From: Campylobacterales bacterium | GTDB taxonomy: Bacteria > Campylobacterota > Campylobacteria > Campylobacterales > UBA6016 | Assembly: GCA_050252455.1 (NCBI GenBank) | Contig: JBFWKW010000006.1 | Location: 926-64,925 of the forward strand | Reading direction: 5' to 3' | DNA: 64,000 bases | Part shown: positions 35,968 to 64,000 of the stretch, in pieces | Layout of the letters: every line of letters starts with the position of its first letter | Position numbering within the stretch: position 1 is the stretch's first letter | Program-made: the position numbers and the translations under genes | The notes under the pieces: generated by a model | Databases searched by the model: none | The model's input: the letters and a program-made list of their open reading frames with translations, nothing else | Told to the model about the DNA's origin: nothing

Positions 35968-37743
35968 TTACAAAAACCTCTTCTCATACCATCTACTGAA
36001 GATATAGAGGCTCCAGAGGTGGTGGCGGAAGCCCTTGTCTTTTCTATGTTTGAGATAAAACTCTATGTTGCGCTCATCAAACAGCCCGCTCTCTCTCGAT
36101 ACACGCCGCACGACATCCATATCGCCGCTCTCTCGCAGCCACTCCATGAAAGGATAACTAAACCCTTTTTTTCGGCGTGCCGTGATGGACGGGTGGAGGA
36201 TGTCCGCAAAGGCGTCTTTGAGGAAGGATTTTGGTGATGAGGGGTGCTTGATATGGCTAGGCAAAGCAAAGGAGTGCTTCACAAACTCTATGTCAAGAAA
36301 CGGCGCTCTCACCTCCACGCCGTTCGCCATCGAGACCCTATCGACTTTGTGTAGTAGTGCCTCGTCCAGCCATGTACGCAAATCCACAAATGACGCCCAC
36401 CTCCAGTAATCACCCCCGTCAAACTCCGCAAACACCGATGACAAAAGCTCCATCGAATCCACGGCGGATGAAGGCATCAGTCTAGCCCTCTGCGAATCAA
36501 GGAAACTCTCGCCGTACCCACGGTAAACAGGCTCATCCTTAGTAGCCCTCAGATACCACTCCCACTCTTTATTGTAGGCGATATTTGCCTCCAGATGGTT
36601 GCGTAGCCACCCTTTGTGCGGGGCGGTTTTGAGCGCTTCAAACTTCACATATTCGGAGTATTTGCGGTATCCGTAGTACTGCTCGTCACTACCCTCGCCG
36701 CTCAGGACGCATTTGATACCGCTATCGCGAATGCCTCGCATCAAAAAATCAAGAGGCAACGCCGCAGGGTCACTGAGCGGCTCATCCATATACGAGAGGT
36801 ATCTATCCAGCGAGTCAAAAAAATCGCTCTTTGAAAATATAAACTCACGGTGCTCGGAGCCGTAAATCTCGGCGGTCTCACGGGCCAGAGGTCTCTCATC
36901 GTAAGCCTCGTTGCCCTCATATCCAACCGTAAAGGTACGAAGCCTCTTACCGTGCACCTTTGCGGCGGCGGCAAGTACGAGAGCGCTATCTAGCCCGCCT
37001 GAGAGCAACGAGCCCACCTCGACATCGGCGGATAGCCGCAAGGACAGAGAGTCAAAAAACAGCTCTCTCGTTCGCCGCACCGCCTCATCATAGGAGATGT
37101 CACACACGGGAGCAAGAGGAGTATCGAAACGCTCTATGCGGTACTGCGAGCCGTCAAACTCCAGCACCTCACCCGCCCCAAGCCTATAAACGCCATCATA
37201 TATCGTATGAGGAGCTACGGGCGAGAGAAAGCCGAAAAAGCCGTTAATCCCCTCTTTTGAGACGCTTTTTGTGCCTAGATGCGGAAGTATCGCCTTGATT
37301 TCGCTTGCGAATATGAGGGAGTTGTTTTGAAGGGTATAAAAAAGAGGTTTTTTGCCCACGGGGTCACGAGCTATAAGCAGCCGCCTGCCGTCATAAAAAG
37401 CGATAGAGTACATACCTCGAAGCCGAGGCAAAAAAGCAGAACACTGCCGCAAAAGCCCCGCCAGCACCACATCCCCCTCTGCAAAAGGGTGCGAGAGTCC
37501 TAGCTCCTCTGCAAGCGCACGATAGTTATATATCTCGCCGTTAAAAACAAGCCTCGCCGCACCACATGCAAATACGCCGCCGTCTAAGCCCAAATCCATA
37601 ATAGCAAGACGGGTCTGCCCTAGAAAATATCCACCACCCTCATCGGAATCTATACCATCCGTGCCTCTGGGGGCTAGAGCGTCAAGCGACCGCCTCGCCG
37701 CCTTTGCCTCGTATGAGCCTACTATGCCGAATATGCCACACAT
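35968..37743 (-). CDS. asnB: asparagine synthase (glutamine-hydrolysing) family amidotransferase, paralogue 1
   Basis: 591 aa. Ntn nucleophile 'MCGIFG' and PP-loop 'SLLSGGLDS'. Noticeably GC-rich relative to the rest of the locus. Confidence 0.85.
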   Translation of the reverse strand: MCGIFGIVGSYEAKAARRSLDALAPRGTDGIDSDEGGGYFLGQTRLAIMDLGLDGGVFACGAARLVFNGEIYNYRALAEELGLSHPFAEGDVVLAGLLRQCSAFLPRLRGMYSIAFYDGRRLLIARDPVGKKPLFYTLQNNSLIFASEIKAILPHLGTKSVSKEGINGFFGFLSPVAPHTIYDGVYRLGAGEVLEFDGSQYRIERFDTPLAPVCDISYDEAVRRTRELFFDSLSLRLSADVEVGSLLSGGLDSALVLAAAAKVHGKRLRTFTVGYEGNEAYDERPLARETAEIYGSEHREFIFSKSDFFDSLDRYLSYMDEPLSDPAALPLDFLMRGIRDSGIKCVLSGEGSDEQYYGYRKYSEYVKFEALKTAPHKGWLRNHLEANIAYNKEWEWYLRATKDEPVYRGYGESFLDSQRARLMPSSAVDSMELLSSVFAEFDGGDYWRWASFVDLRTWLDEALLHKVDRVSMANGVEVRAPFLDIEFVKHSFALPSHIKHPSSPKSFLKDAFADILHPSITARRKKGFSYPFMEWLRESGDMDVVRRVSRESGLFDERNIEFYLKHRKDKGFRHHLWSLYIFSRWYEKRFL

Positions 37744-37749
37744 GATTCG

Positions 37750-61462: not shown

Positions 61463-62956
61463 TTAAGAAAAACCTAAAAATACAAGCGCATTGTCCATAT
61501 TGCCTGTTTTTTTCACATCATAACTTTTAATTGTGTTTGTTGCATATTCTGATATTAAAGATATGGCGATATCTTCGGTTTCGGCATACTCCACAAAACC
61601 TTTTTCAATATATTCTTCAAAATTATCAAAACCTGCTCTATCCAAAATAATTGACGGCTTATTAAATATTTTTGCCTCTAAAATAACGCTAGAGGTCATT
61701 GTTATATGGATATCCACCTTGTCCAATATACTATAAAGCGGAACAGCCGAGGCTATTTTTATATTACAAAAGTTGCCAAGCCCCTCTCTTTGTATTGCAG
61801 CCTCAACCTCACTTCCCAAATGAAGTCTACATGGGTGCATCCTGATAAAGTAAAATAAATCATCATTTGCCGCAATGCTGCTTTTTACAAGCGAAATCAA
61901 CCTCTCCGTCTCATTTTCTATCAAGCCGTTATACGTATACAACAAGTTGAAACTTTTACTATCAACAATTTGCTCTATTGGACAACTCATATCTAATTGA
62001 AATTCTTGAAATTTTTCAATATACGGATGCCCGCCAACAACACTGCTATGCGAATGGTTTGCCCATTCATTTACTATTCTGGCTTCTGCATCACTCCAGC
62101 ACCAAAAGTAGTTAGGCAGCATCTCATAGCCACATTCTGGCAAGTTTATCCATTTGCTATATGCCTGATGGTATCCGCCGTAAACACCGTGCTGTATATC
62201 AACAGTTGCAATACCTAGTCGCCTACATGCGATGTTCAAAGCCAGTCCTTCATTGCCATAATAGCTTACAATAAATACGGTCTTAGGCTTGGTTTTAATA
62301 AGTATTTTTTCAAATGTTTTAGCAAAACAAAGAACATAATTAACCTGCCTATTTATATCATCTAGTGAATAGAAGCTATCTGCTATCCCAATTTTTTCAA
62401 AATATTCAACGATGAGGTCAAAATCAGGCAAGCAACTATCTTTCCTGTTAAAACAACCGACCACTAGACTTTTTAATATAGCGATATCAAGTCTTGGCTG
62501 TATCCAAAAGGACTTTGTGAATCTAGGATACAAAAACATATTTAACGGAGATATTAATAGCGTGCTATGGGCATTTGAGTTTAATTTCTCTATTATTGGG
62601 TCACAAAACTTATCATAATATTTGCCATTACGCATTTCCAATGATACGCCGTCACTATAAAACAAGGCATCTATTTGGACAAGTCTACTATTATTTTCTG
62701 CGTCAAAAAAGCACGCTTTTGCATACTTGATGTAAGTTTTAATGCTTGCCGCGATGTGAAGAAAAATTCTTTGCAGATTTGTTTTTTTTATTTTTTGCTT
62801 ATTTATTTTTAATACATTGCTACTAATGAGATTTGTTATGAAGTGAATCCTAATAAGCGGCCACACTCGCGCACCGCCAACGCACCATGTATTTACCCTG
62901 AAATTGGACTCTACGTTGGCTAGAATTTTAAAAATATTCTTTAAATCCATTTTCAA
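61463..62956 (-). CDS. hypothetical soluble protein, possible GT-B-like transferase
   Basis: 497 aa, very AT-rich. No family recognised with confidence. It contains 'IRMHP' (an HP dipeptide like the HP motif of bacterial sialyltransferases) and 'TSSVILEA'. The functional call is speculative. Confidence 0.4.
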   Translation of the reverse strand: MKMDLKNIFKILANVESNFRVNTWCVGGARVWPLIRIHFITNLISSNVLKINKQKIKKTNLQRIFLHIAASIKTYIKYAKACFFDAENNSRLVQIDALFYSDGVSLEMRNGKYYDKFCDPIIEKLNSNAHSTLLISPLNMFLYPRFTKSFWIQPRLDIAILKSLVVGCFNRKDSCLPDFDLIVEYFEKIGIADSFYSLDDINRQVNYVLCFAKTFEKILIKTKPKTVFIVSYYGNEGLALNIACRRLGIATVDIQHGVYGGYHQAYSKWINLPECGYEMLPNYFWCWSDAEARIVNEWANHSHSSVVGGHPYIEKFQEFQLDMSCPIEQIVDSKSFNLLYTYNGLIENETERLISLVKSSIAANDDLFYFIRMHPCRLHLGSEVEAAIQREGLGNFCNIKIASAVPLYSILDKVDIHITMTSSVILEAKIFNKPSIILDRAGFDNFEEYIEKGFVEYAETEDIAISLISEYATNTIKSYDVKKTGNMDNALVFLGFS

Positions 62957-64000
62957 TAAACAAATCGATTAAATCCCAATACTAGCGCCCTAGCATTTGC
63001 TTGTGCATACGAAACAGATTCTACCCTCATGGCGTTTTTTATATGGCTGCGCAATTTGGAATCAGAAATCATATTGGTTACCTTTGAAATGTAGTCTTCA
63101 ATTGACCATCCGGTGTAGTAATCTGACATATAAAGTCCATCATATGTAAAACTATCGGCATTGTCTTTTAAAAACTTTACGGAATGAGGCAAATAATCTT
63201 CGTAGACGGCAAATTTAACCGGCTTATACTCGCAAAAATTAAAATTGCCAACAATGAGATTGTCACCTAGTTCTTCAAAATAAACGTCTGTCAACATATT
63301 AAGAATTTTATTATCAACACCATCCATTAAAATGGCTCTGTCGCCAATTCTATTTTTCTCTTTTGCTGATTTTGTCAGGTATGCAATCGAATCATCCCTG
63401 GAAAGAATATGTTCAATATGTTGAATATTTTTATCATTCATGCACTCAAAATTTTGTACAGAAAATATAATTGCGTATGTCTTTGTGTTTGATTTTATAT
63501 TTTTAAAAATATTCATTTCCGTATCGTTAAGATTGTTTTTTTTACCCGTCCTTATGGATATATATACATTTCCTTTGGCGGCATACTCAAGCATACTCTC
63601 ACCCTGATTCATAGGAAATGTATCACACCACAAATCAATAATATGACCATACACATGAGCATCCACATGCCCAGGCATATAAAACCTATCGGAAATGCCT
63701 AGCTTTTCTACTTTGGCTCTTATACTATCCATATTTCCGCTACCGGCAGCTATAAATATCGTATTTTGGTTTTGACGCATTATCTCGGCTATAGTCTGTA
63801 AATACTCATCGCTATCGACTTTAACAAGCCTACCTATAACACCAAGGATAAAAGCGTCTTTTGGATACATTGACCTCTCGTGCTCTATCAGGCGAGGGTC
63901 TCTATATGGATTATAAAAAGTTTCCGTGTCCATCGGAACGGTAAAAGACTCAAAATCATAAGCACACCCCTGTAAAGCACAGTGAGTAATTTTTTTATCA
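62953..64000 (-). CDS. GT41/SPINDLY-like glycosyltransferase C-terminal domain protein, 5'-truncated by window edge
   Basis: 'FILGVIGRLVK', 'GISDRFYMPGHVD' and 'IIDLWCDTFPMNQGESMLEYAAKGNV' follow the pattern of O-GlcNAc-transferase-like bacterial proteins (DxxLDTFPYxGxTT). The reading frame stays open from 63933 to position 64000, so the N-terminus lies outside the window. Confidence 0.55.
   Translation of the reverse strand, partial: DKKITHCALQGCAYDFESFTVPMDTETFYNPYRDPRLIEHERSMYPKDAFILGVIGRLVKVDSDEYLQTIAEIMRQNQNTIFIAAGSGNMDSIRAKVEKLGISDRFYMPGHVDAHVYGHIIDLWCDTFPMNQGESMLEYAAKGNVYISIRTGKKNNLNDTEMNIFKNIKSNTKTYAIIFSVQNFECMNDKNIQHIEHILSRDDSIAYLTKSAKEKNRIGDRAILMDGVDNKILNMLTDVYFEELGDNLIVGNFNFCEYKPVKFAVYEDYLPHSVKFLKDNADSFTYDGLYMSDYYTGWSIEDYISKVTNMISDSKLRSHIKNAMRVESVSYAQANARALVLGFNRFVY

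Follow-up and report, generated by a model that had tools for sequence, protein, structure and literature searches.

A 26-gene, co-directional glycan locus of a Campylobacterales bacterium that combines diamino-sugar genes, a nonulosonic-acid cassette, and two radical SAM enzymes

We analyzed a 64,000-nucleotide (nt) stretch of DNA, hereafter the window, from Campylobacterales bacterium (assembly GCA_050252455.1, contig JBFWKW010000006.1, positions 926 to 64,925 of the forward strand). Positions 35968-63933 of the window hold 26 open reading frames (ORFs) that likely form a surface glycan locus, in which genes for 2,3-diamino sugars (module B) are followed by a nonulosonic-acid (NulO) cassette (module A) and glycosyltransferase-like genes (module C; Table 1). 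Module A also encodes two radical S-adenosylmethionine (SAM) enzymes, one with a SPASM domain and one with a B12-binding domain, and we found no curated model and no paper for either family. Both families are recurrent accessories of NulO gene clusters and are not peculiar to this locus.

Organization and integrity of the locus

All 26 ORFs lie on the minus strand, as an initial annotation of this DNA had claimed for every ORF from 35,968 to the window edge. The junctions between them, in order of position, measure 6, -40, -8, -19, 0, -4, 0, -22, -8, -7, -34, 0, -85, -11, -4, -14, -4, -4, 1, 9, -11, 0, 18, 74, and -4 nt, with the -85 junction changing to +11 when the 454-amino acid (aa) start chosen by an independent gene call is used. 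The further claim that neighboring ORFs overlap or lie no more than 18 nt apart, save for a 74-nt gap at 61389-61462, is borne out by this list. The locus may be a single operon; promoter and terminator scans returned promoter counts at shuffle level and nothing decisive on operon structure, and Rfam and tRNA scans of the window gave no matches. The last ORF (from 62953) is incomplete, with no in-frame stop between 63933 and 64000, and an independent assembly's call of this gene is 375 aa long with a start near window position 64080. Thus, the locus extends past the window and both contigs at hand, and its promoter-proximal end lies outside our view. At the other end, asnB1 is followed by an 80-nt T-rich gap and then by three non-glycan genes, also on the minus strand.

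Nearly all of the gene content listed by the initial annotation was recovered in our profile and structure-database searches. We found the WbpB-, WbpE-, and WbpD-type enzymes (matching 3OA2, 3NU7, and 3MQG, the last being WlbB, the WbpD equivalent), a second dehydrogenase/aminotransferase pair of WlbA (3Q2I) and DesV/QdtB type, three AsnB paralogues, two HisH/HisF pairs, two PP-loop amidotransferases (WbuX), two SAM methyltransferases (Methyltransf_3 and TylF), and a DUF354 protein. The domains and Cys motifs of both radical SAM enzymes are present, and one GT4-type and three weaker glycosyltransferase-like ORFs correspond to the "three or four" glycosyltransferases proposed. All ORFs of the locus match family profiles over essentially their full length and so show no sign of pseudogenes.

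The GC content of the locus falls in steps, from 0.52-0.53 (36-38 kb) to 0.44-0.51 (38-44 kb) and 0.35-0.42 (44-64 kb). Such a pattern could arise if pieces of several organisms' genomes had been joined into a chimera during assembly or binning, as could the end of an independent Logan contig (SRR27751818) at ~37.3 kb inside the high-GC asnB1 gene and the position of the closest relatives of the SPASM gene outside the Campylobacterota. We consider a chimera most improbable. The Logan assembly repeats the window from ~37279 to 64080 with identical genes and proteins across all GC steps within its span, the 37.3-kb break lies in an intact, full-length AsnB ORF, and all junctions are tight or overlapping and in one orientation. 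The best relatives of the B12 gene are from the Campylobacterota (70-79% identity), as is the host, and mosaic GC content is usual in glycan islands. Paralogue pairs within the locus are merely 22-43% identical, which together with the GC steps indicates an old mosaic rather than a recent duplication. The "fusion" of pathways in the initial annotation is thus better described as a mosaic in GC content whose parts diverged deeply. The locus was probably assembled horizontally.

Table 1. Genes of the locus and its downstream border, by window position. Module B spans 36.0-47.3 kb, module A 47.3-56.2 kb, and module C 56.2 kb to the window edge; a cut-off is that of the profile model named.
Position	Strand	Product	Evidence
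33527-34090	-	QueD-like 6-carboxytetrahydropterin synthase	Below its cut-off
34075-34917	-	CHAD-domain protein	Family match
34919-35887	-	MoaA	353 bits, above its cut-off
35968-37743	-	AsnB-type amidotransferase 1 (asnB1), last gene of locus	TIGR01536, 333 bits; GC 0.52-0.53
37750-38355	-	WlbB/WbpD-type 3-N-acetyltransferase	3MQG, E 2.5e-64
38316-39401	-	DegT-family sugar 3-aminotransferase (DesV/QdtB-like)	2OGA, E 1.6e-92; QdtB, E 5.4e-84; WbpE, E 1.4e-62
39394-40083	-	Methyltransf_3 (CCoAOMT-like) O-methyltransferase	PF01596, E 1.3e-19
40065-41123	-	WlbA-type sugar 3-dehydrogenase	3Q2I and 3Q2K, E 2e-94
41124-42197	-	DUF354 protein, GT-B-like	PF04007, E 3.3e-30
42194-43894	-	AsnB-type amidotransferase 2	TIGR01536, 399 bits
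43895-44998	-	WbpE-type 3-aminotransferase	3NU7, E 2.8e-124
44977-45936	-	WbpB-type UDP-GlcNAcA 3-dehydrogenase	P. aeruginosa WbpB 3OA2, E 2.7e-111, full length
45929-46690	-	AglZ/HisF2, pair a	NF038364, 355 bits (cut-off 310)
46684-47331	-	HisH, pair a	231 bits
47298-47990	-	Candidate CMP-nonulosonate synthetase (CTP_transf_3)	PF02348; PseF model, 158 bits (below cut-off 205.7)
47991-49355	-	Radical SAM/SPASM enzyme with extra C-terminal winged-helix-like domain	CX3CX2C at residue 21; CX2CX5CX3C at residue 306
49367-50578	-	WbuX-type amidotransferase copy a	TIGR03573, 362 bits
50568-51230	-	HisH-like, pair b	HisH, 215 bits
51227-51988	-	HisF-like, pair b	WbuZ, 267 bits
51975-53129	-	NeuC-type hydrolyzing UDP-GlcNAc 2-epimerase	TIGR03568, 407.5 bits (cut-off 235.9)
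53126-53791	-	TylF-family SAM methyltransferase	PF05711, E 3.6e-21
53788-55176	-	B12-binding (class B) radical SAM enzyme	PF02310 + PF04055; CX3CX2C at residue 202
55178-56239	-	NeuB, N-acetylneuraminic acid (Neu5Ac) synthase type	N. meningitidis NeuB 1XUU, E 4.6e-135, 453 bits, full length
56249-57346	-	GT4 glycosyltransferase	Glyco_transf_4 + Glycos_transf_1
57336-59108	-	AsnB-type glutamine amidotransferase 3	TIGR01536, 399 bits; Cys2
59109-60275	-	Putative membrane-anchored GT-B glycosyltransferase	Weak Glycos_transf_1 match
60294-61388	-	WbuX-type PP-loop N-acetyl-sugar amidotransferase copy b	TIGR03573, 292.6 bits (cut-off 203)
61463-62956	-	Candidate nonulosonic-acid transferase, ~495 aa	C-terminal part: NCBIfam BFO_1060 domain, 39.9 bits, E 2.7e-10 (cut-off 200)
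62953-64000	-	GT-B-like glycosyltransferase, 5' end cut	Weak Glycos_transf_1 and Glyco_trans_1_4 matches

Two radical SAM families recur beside nonulosonic-acid genes

Both Cys motifs of the SPASM enzyme were invariant across 55 homologues, and PF13186 is recorded for many of them. The enzyme has no NCBIfam equivalog (best model, 97 bits against a cut-off of 500), and its closest NCBIfam matches are maturases of heme and of ribosomally synthesized and posttranslationally modified peptides (RiPPs). At least 479 clusters of homologues make up the family (the best 120 listed are 49-72% identical to the window protein), and it extends over Omnitrophota, Planctomycetota (including an anammox genus), Desulfobacterota, Nitrospinota, Rhodospirillales, Pelagibacterales, Prochlorococcus single-cell genomes, and others. 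We compared the window proteins with all ORFs of 47 nonredundant SPASM orthologue loci spanning >10 phyla or classes (at least 37% identity, 8-kb windows), with 20 loci of homologues below 37% identity as a control. Within 8 kb of the SPASM gene, a cytidine monophosphate (CMP)-transferase gene was found in 38 of the 47 loci, a NeuB-family gene in 32, and a TylF methyltransferase gene in 25, along with genes for a B12 radical SAM enzyme (14/47), NeuC (10/47), and WbuX (9/47). None of these NulO-linked genes occurred in the control loci of distant homologues (0/20). Direct-neighbor statistics were less informative than the 8-kb windows, since many contigs are short.

The B12 enzyme likewise has no NCBIfam equivalog (the best model, BchE, gives 146 bits and has a cut-off of 481), and its NCBIfam matches mix cyclases, methylases, and dehydratases. 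Its family contains 4,296 clusters at E ≤1e-40, with Arcobacter, Marinarcus, and Sulfurimonas as the top named members. Across 44 metagenomic B12 loci of at least 9 kb, we observed genes for a CMP-transferase in 38, NeuB in 26, NeuC in 22, and the WbuX, HisH, and HisF trio in 12. A neighbor survey over all 80 B12 loci detected the CMP-transferase gene in 44, usually as the immediate upstream neighbor. The same survey showed a PtmE-like CBS-NTP-transferase in 30 loci and Maf in 7, with PglD-like acetyltransferases and Wzx-like proteins recurring among the neighbors (a Wzx-like flippase in eight loci). The closest B12 homologue (79% identity) has two maf genes on one side and fliD on the other, with three flagellin genes adjacent, and a 72% homologue lies within a complete, Campylobacter-type legionaminic acid (Leg) cluster that ends in maf in a closed Sulfurimonas genome; the related B12 loci with Maf include L166, L168, and L088. 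SPASM and TylF genes were absent from the B12-family loci compared, suggesting that the two radical SAM families are independent accessory modules that are combined in this window.

These co-occurrences bear on whether the two radical SAM genes may be passengers without a glycan role, such as cofactor or RiPP maturases in a variable island. The NCBIfam matches of the SPASM enzyme to heme and RiPP maturases would fit this possibility, and so would its C-terminal domain. The ~100 residues after the SPASM motif (window 47991-48300) form a three-strand, three-helix domain whose invariant residues include an RFR motif and a Trp. We detected no PqqD or other meaningful Pfam match to it in 23 family members, and its Foldseek matches were weak (E ≥0.06) and mostly to peptide-binding RiPP recognition elements (RREs) and winged-helix domains, a likeness that a peptide substrate would fit better than a sugar and that counts against a role in glycan synthesis. 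In addition, Maridesulfovibrio hydrothermalis (L002/L003, 9304-13312) carries a lone TylF-SPASM pair beside formyltransferase and polysaccharide deacetylase genes and a few kb from kdsA, kdsC, and lptC, with no NeuB or CMP-transferase gene nearby. We nevertheless regard passenger genes as very unlikely, because the coupling to NulO genes holds in 38/47 SPASM and 38/44 B12 loci from unrelated phyla and is gone in distant homologues. Furthermore, both genes sit tightly among NulO genes, at most 11 nt from their neighbors, and no small, precursor-like ORF adjoins the SPASM gene in the window ORF list. The formyltransferase and polysaccharide deacetylase beside the Maridesulfovibrio pair are both functions assigned to NulO tailoring in "Ca. 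Kuenenia" (10.64898/2026.04.20.719630). The SPASM enzyme itself may be a RiPP maturase, a role that the weak RRE matches and the lack of an adjoining precursor ORF neither establish nor exclude.

Several related loci showed further features of their own. L166 (GCA_002327465.1, 12905-21389), a flagellar locus from a related genome, has an opposite-strand block adjacent to its maf-B12 radical SAM-fliD genes. This block encodes two additional short SPASM radical SAM enzymes, one more B12 radical SAM enzyme, a split transketolase, an epimerase, and a PfkB/cytidylyltransferase fusion, suggesting that radical chemistry in flagellin-glycan loci may exceed the two families studied here. In L054 (13063-17573), L026, and L031, NeuB-family domains fused to CBS and xylose-isomerase-like TIM-barrel (AP_endonuc_2) domains adjoin SPASM orthologues, and the fused gene of L054 is followed by genes for a BFO_1060-like transferase and a sulfotransferase. 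These fused proteins may be a different type of ulosonic-acid synthase. The SPASM orthologue of L026 belongs to Magnetospirillum sp. 64-120, and C10 "higher-carbon" CMP-ulosonic acids have been reported in Magnetospirillum gryphiswaldense (preprint 10.64898/2026.04.20.719630). A search seeded with the L026 orthologue listed no M. gryphiswaldense protein among its best 120 matches (to 45% identity) and thus did not support a link to these compounds, which we keep as a lead.

Sugar-forming genes of the locus and other genes of the window

The initial annotation had proposed a Neu/Leg-type trio of NulO genes. Genes for NeuC, a NeuB-type synthase, and a PseF/NeuA-like CMP-transferase are indeed present, and the module looks closer to the neuraminic than to the legionaminic branch. 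NeuB matched its Neisseria counterpart far better than Bacillus subtilis SpsE (161 bits) or the pseudaminic acid (Pse) synthase PseI (136 bits), in a comparison that took in NeuB, SpsE, and PseI structures with no LegI structure available for it; the TIGR03568 model matched by NeuC does not tell NeuC from LegG. No nucleotide-sugar 4,6-dehydratase (Polysacc_synt_2 or Epimerase family) was found in the window, and both DegT proteins scored 176-250 bits against LegC/PseC cut-offs of 420-423. A Neisseria-type NeuB without a visible 4,6-dehydratase suggests that the nine-carbon sugar is derived from neuraminic acid, making a backbone of this type more likely than a legionaminic one. A minimal cassette in an Ectothiorhodospiraceae metagenome-assembled genome (MAG; L009) encodes NeuB (60% identity), a polysaccharide deacetylase, the SPASM enzyme (61%), TylF (58%), NeuC (51%), and the CMP-transferase (46%), with neither a dehydratase nor an aminotransferase.

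Orthologues of WbuX copy a (50-71% identity) occur in NulO cassettes, and HisF/HisH pair b lies beside this gene in 8-12 related NulO loci. Due to this conservation of WbuX, HisF, and HisH with NulO genes in many loci, we predict a 5-acetamidino group on the sugar, with pair b likely serving as the ammonia supply for WbuX copy a. To our knowledge, a 5-acetamidino group is known only on Pse and Leg.

Module B contains two dehydrogenases of the same activity but of different subfamilies, the WlbA- and WbpB-type proteins sharing 27% identity over half their length and the former belonging to the Bordetella/Chromobacterium WlbA subfamily. The catalytic N-terminal Cys2 is retained in all three AsnB paralogues, and the cut-offs of the HisH (TIGR01855) and WbuX (TIGR03573) models are exceeded in the locus. 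A PDB search with the DUF354 protein gave no relative, and the literature holds nothing on its function past a published prediction of a glycosyltransferase-like protein with poorly conserved catalytic residues (PMC4520260).

In module C, WbuX copy b is 22% identical to copy a and is preceded by the 74-nt gap. The product of the gene at 59109-60275 has the only transmembrane-like segment in the locus (residues 5-37), and no multi-transmembrane protein was found among the 26 ORFs. The candidate NulO transferase at 61463-62956 had no Pfam or PDB match, and homologues of it (23-26% identity) are encoded in five SPASM loci. The domain that its C-terminal part resembles is named for BFO_1060, an orthologue of a genetically proven Pse/Leg transferase of Tannerella forsythia (PMC5420450).

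The remainder of the window consists of housekeeping genes that fit the Campylobacterales (waaA, glyQ, purE, the epsilonproteobacterial DUF3972, glnA, nifV/nifB, and clpX). At 26019-29425 on the plus strand, a third B12-binding radical SAM gene (KedN5-like, weak match) lies directly upstream of a TIGR03916/TIGR03915 "DNA modification/repair radical SAM" pair. At 22856-25957, we also observed a very strong match to the autoinducer-2 kinase LsrK (821 bits), with no other lsr genes noticed, and beside it a gene for a 374-aa protein that matches only the aldolase half of bifunctional aldolase/short-chain dehydrogenase enzymes. On the minus strand at 14925-17469, genes for a NifV-like homocitrate synthase and NifB (radical SAM and Nitro_FeMo-Co domains) suggest that this organism fixes nitrogen. 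Finally, at 30258-33530 on the plus strand, a secretin gene (GspD/PilQ-type C-terminal domain) is preceded by one for a 453-aa protein without a family match.

A model for the glycan, its acceptor, and its relation to known systems

These findings likely reflect a mosaic locus whose enzymes would make several activated sugars in the cytoplasm that are then assembled into an acidic, heavily N-modified surface glycan. In module A, NeuC would convert UDP-GlcNAc to N-acetylmannosamine, which the Neisseria-type NeuB would condense with phosphoenolpyruvate. WbuX with HisH and HisF would convert the N-acetyl group to an acetamidino group, and the CTP_transf_3 enzyme would activate the NulO with CMP. 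The B12 radical SAM, SPASM radical SAM, and TylF enzymes may tailor either the free or the CMP-bound sugar. As guesses, the class B enzyme could methylate an unactivated carbon or perform an AprD4-like dehydration, and the SPASM enzyme could oxidize or epimerize a C-H position ahead of O-methylation by TylF. Module B would form 2,3-diamino-2,3-dideoxy (uronic) sugars via two parallel routes, one using WbpB and WbpE and the other the WlbA-type and DesV-like enzymes, with the WlbB-type enzyme N-acetylating their product. Acetamidino formation in this module may involve WbuX copy b (60.3 kb) together with AglZ/HisF2 and HisH of pair a. The AsnB paralogues would amidate carboxyl groups and the Methyltransf_3 enzyme would O-methylate. 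The four glycosyltransferase-like proteins of module C, including the one that resembles the Tannerella NulO transferase, would then assemble the glycan.

For the radical SAM steps, known radical SAM enzymes provide precedents. The class B enzyme Fom3 acts as a methylase on a CMP-activated substrate, GenK adds a methyl group to a sugar carbon, AprD4 deoxygenates a sugar, and BtrN oxidizes a sugar-like alcohol. In light of these precedents, radical tailoring of the (CMP-)NulO is the most economical reading. In other bacteria, deacetylation, formylation, and O-methylation of NulOs at the CMP-sugar level have been observed by mass spectrometry (SugarBase preprint 10.64898/2026.04.20.719630). We tentatively propose, with considerable reserve, that both families are dedicated (CMP-)NulO tailoring enzymes that together with TylF and WbuX convert Neu5Ac into an undescribed sialic-acid derivative. 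Candidate products are C-methylated or chain-extended, deoxygenated, or epimerized forms of 5-acetamidino-neuraminic acid.

In addition to the C-terminal domain of the SPASM enzyme, several observations weigh against this model or parts of it. The closest PDB relatives of the two radical SAM enzymes give only a generic placement, these being the sugar decarboxylase BlsE for the SPASM enzyme (E 5.7e-12) and the aminoglycoside diol-dehydratase AprD4 for the B12 enzyme (E 5.6e-20, 75 bits). A structure model of the SPASM enzyme (predicted local distance difference test score, 92) matched SkfB, SuiB, anSME, PqqE, viperin, BlsE, MoaA, and DesII at template modeling scores of ≤0.58, and we dropped a fold-based transfer of function because these are only generic superfamily neighbors. 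NeuB falls just below the cut-off of TIGR03569 (370 against 399.65 bits), as the CMP-transferase falls below that of its best NCBIfam model (PseF), and dehydratase and aminotransferase genes of the Leg/Pse type could lie off the contig. No equivalents of WbpA (UDP-GlcNAc 6-dehydrogenase) or WbpI/WlbD (nonhydrolyzing 2-epimerase) were found among the 26 ORFs or in the rest of the window, so that a uronic acid is suggested by the WbpB, WlbA, and AsnB types only; wbpA/wbpI-type genes may lie beyond the contig end, and the DUF354 protein is a candidate for the 6-dehydrogenase or 2-epimerase step. The WlbA-type and DesV-like genes also adjoin NulO cassettes elsewhere (L106 and L031) and could thus belong to module A instead. 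Lastly, no flippase, ABC exporter, polymerase, initiating transferase, ligase, or Maf gene is visible in the locus, whose 5' end lies off the contig.

The acceptor of the glycan may be lipopolysaccharide (LPS), capsule, or S-layer. Alternatively, the whole locus or its NulO module alone could serve flagellin O-glycosylation, as do islands of Campylobacter, Helicobacter, and Sulfurimonas. The host belongs to the Campylobacterales, and the nearest B12 homologues have maf, flagellin, and fliD genes as neighbors, with Maf in seven further loci. The visible products are all soluble save one N-terminally anchored glycosyltransferase, and no Wzx, Wzy, or ABC exporter is among them. We consider flagellin an unlikely acceptor, since the 64-kb window contains neither maf nor any flagellar gene and the candidate NulO transferase resembles a glycan-elongating enzyme of Tannerella rather than Maf. 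In addition, the GT4-type transferases and the presence of two routes to diamino sugars suggest an oligo- or polysaccharide, a Wzx-like flippase occurs in eight related B12 loci, and the locus has a 5' part outside our view.

Each module of this surface glycan locus has a named precedent. With the Pseudomonas aeruginosa O5 wbp and Bordetella wlb clusters, which encode a pathway to UDP-2,3-diacetamido-2,3-dideoxy-mannuronic acid, it shares full-length matches to WbpB, WbpE, WlbB, and the WlbA type, and like the O5 cluster, where hisH2/hisF2/wbpG serve acetamidino formation, it has an AglZ/HisF2-HisH pair and WbuX/WbpG-type amidotransferases. In contrast to these clusters, it has no visible WbpA, WbpI, or wzx/wzy and contains both dehydrogenase subfamilies, two aminotransferases, three AsnB genes, extra methyltransferases, and a joined NulO cassette. 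NeuC and likely counterparts of NeuB and the CMP-transferase link the locus to the sialic acid genes of Neisseria meningitidis and Escherichia coli K1 (NeuC/NeuB/NeuA), but the locus lacks a polysialyltransferase and adds WbuX/HisH/HisF, TylF, and the two radical SAM enzymes.

The Campylobacter jejuni flagellin island (Pse/Leg sugars, PseA/PtmG amidotransferases, methylation by PtmH, and Maf) comes from the same order of host and has the same logic of an acetamidino-NulO with methylation, and Sulfurimonas Leg/Maf clusters that resemble the C. jejuni ptm/leg set in makeup contain B12 orthologues. Unlike this island, the window lacks genes for Maf, flagellin, LegB/LegC/LegH, and PtmE/F/A, and we know of no radical SAM gene in the flagellin island of C. 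jejuni NCTC 11168. Tailoring at the nucleotide-sugar level would be a trait shared with the C. jejuni-type island (10.64898/2026.04.20.719630). The nearest published case is a glycan region of Campylobacter fetus subsp. testudinum in which phase-variable, uncharacterized radical SAM genes lie among methyltransferase, short-chain dehydrogenase, and formyltransferase genes (PMC6321876).

The general O-glycosylation system of Tannerella forsythia unites an acetamidino-NulO and mannosaminuronic acid in one glycan, and the window ORF at 61463-62956 matches the BFO_1060 domain weakly, far below cut-off. The T. forsythia glycan also contains a uronamide. Its Pse/Leg-type pathway differs from this locus in having no radical SAM enzymes. 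The NulO, a Pse5Am7Gra or Leg derivative, is placed on N-acetylmannosaminuronic acid by Tanf_01245/BFO_1060 (PMC5420450). Similarity extends to the archaellin N-glycan genes AglXYZ of Methanococcus maripaludis (3-acetamidino mannuronic acid), as the HisF at 45929-46690 passes the AglZ/HisF2 cut-off, WbuX is of the AglX type, and Pfam describes DUF354 as mainly archaeal. The host here is bacterial and no oligosaccharyltransferase context is present. The B12 enzyme shares its B12-binding domain and CX3CX2C core with GenK, Fom3, and AprD4, and its gene usually follows a cytidylyltransferase gene. AprD4, its best solved relative, is a dehydratase and not a methylase.

Consistent with the initial annotation, which knew of no characterized locus combining all of these modules, we found none on comparison with the named precedents. 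Our literature search found no paper linking radical SAM enzymes with nonulosonic acids, and queries with neuB, pseudaminic, or legionaminic gave irrelevant co-mentions. What is new is two widespread radical SAM families tied to NulO genes, and the lasting interest lies in them more than in the 26-gene combination.

Flagella, LPS, capsules, and S-layers carry nonulosonic acids, which control motility, phage recognition, and immune evasion. Their known tailoring reactions, as far as we found, are all polar, involving acyl, amidino, methyl, or formyl transfer. Two conserved radical SAM families in NulO cassettes point to C-H functionalization of sialic-acid-like sugars, which is probably common. 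The locus offers enzyme candidates, and it suggests genes for NulO masses that environmental and wastewater glycomics have left unassigned. Cultured carriers are Sulfurimonas and Candidatus Marinarcus aquaticus for the B12 family, Maridesulfovibrio hydrothermalis for the TylF-SPASM pair, and Azospirillum tabaci W712 for SPASM together with CMP-transferase and NeuB. If our proposal is true, such tailoring would be widespread in SAR11, Prochlorococcus single cells, anammox and other Planctomycetota, Omnitrophota, sulfate reducers, and the flagella of Sulfurimonas and Arcobacter, and it could explain ulosonic acids with extended carbon backbones that have been seen by mass spectrometry and whose genes are unassigned. 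For the organism of this MAG, we predict a chemically unusual surface glycan.

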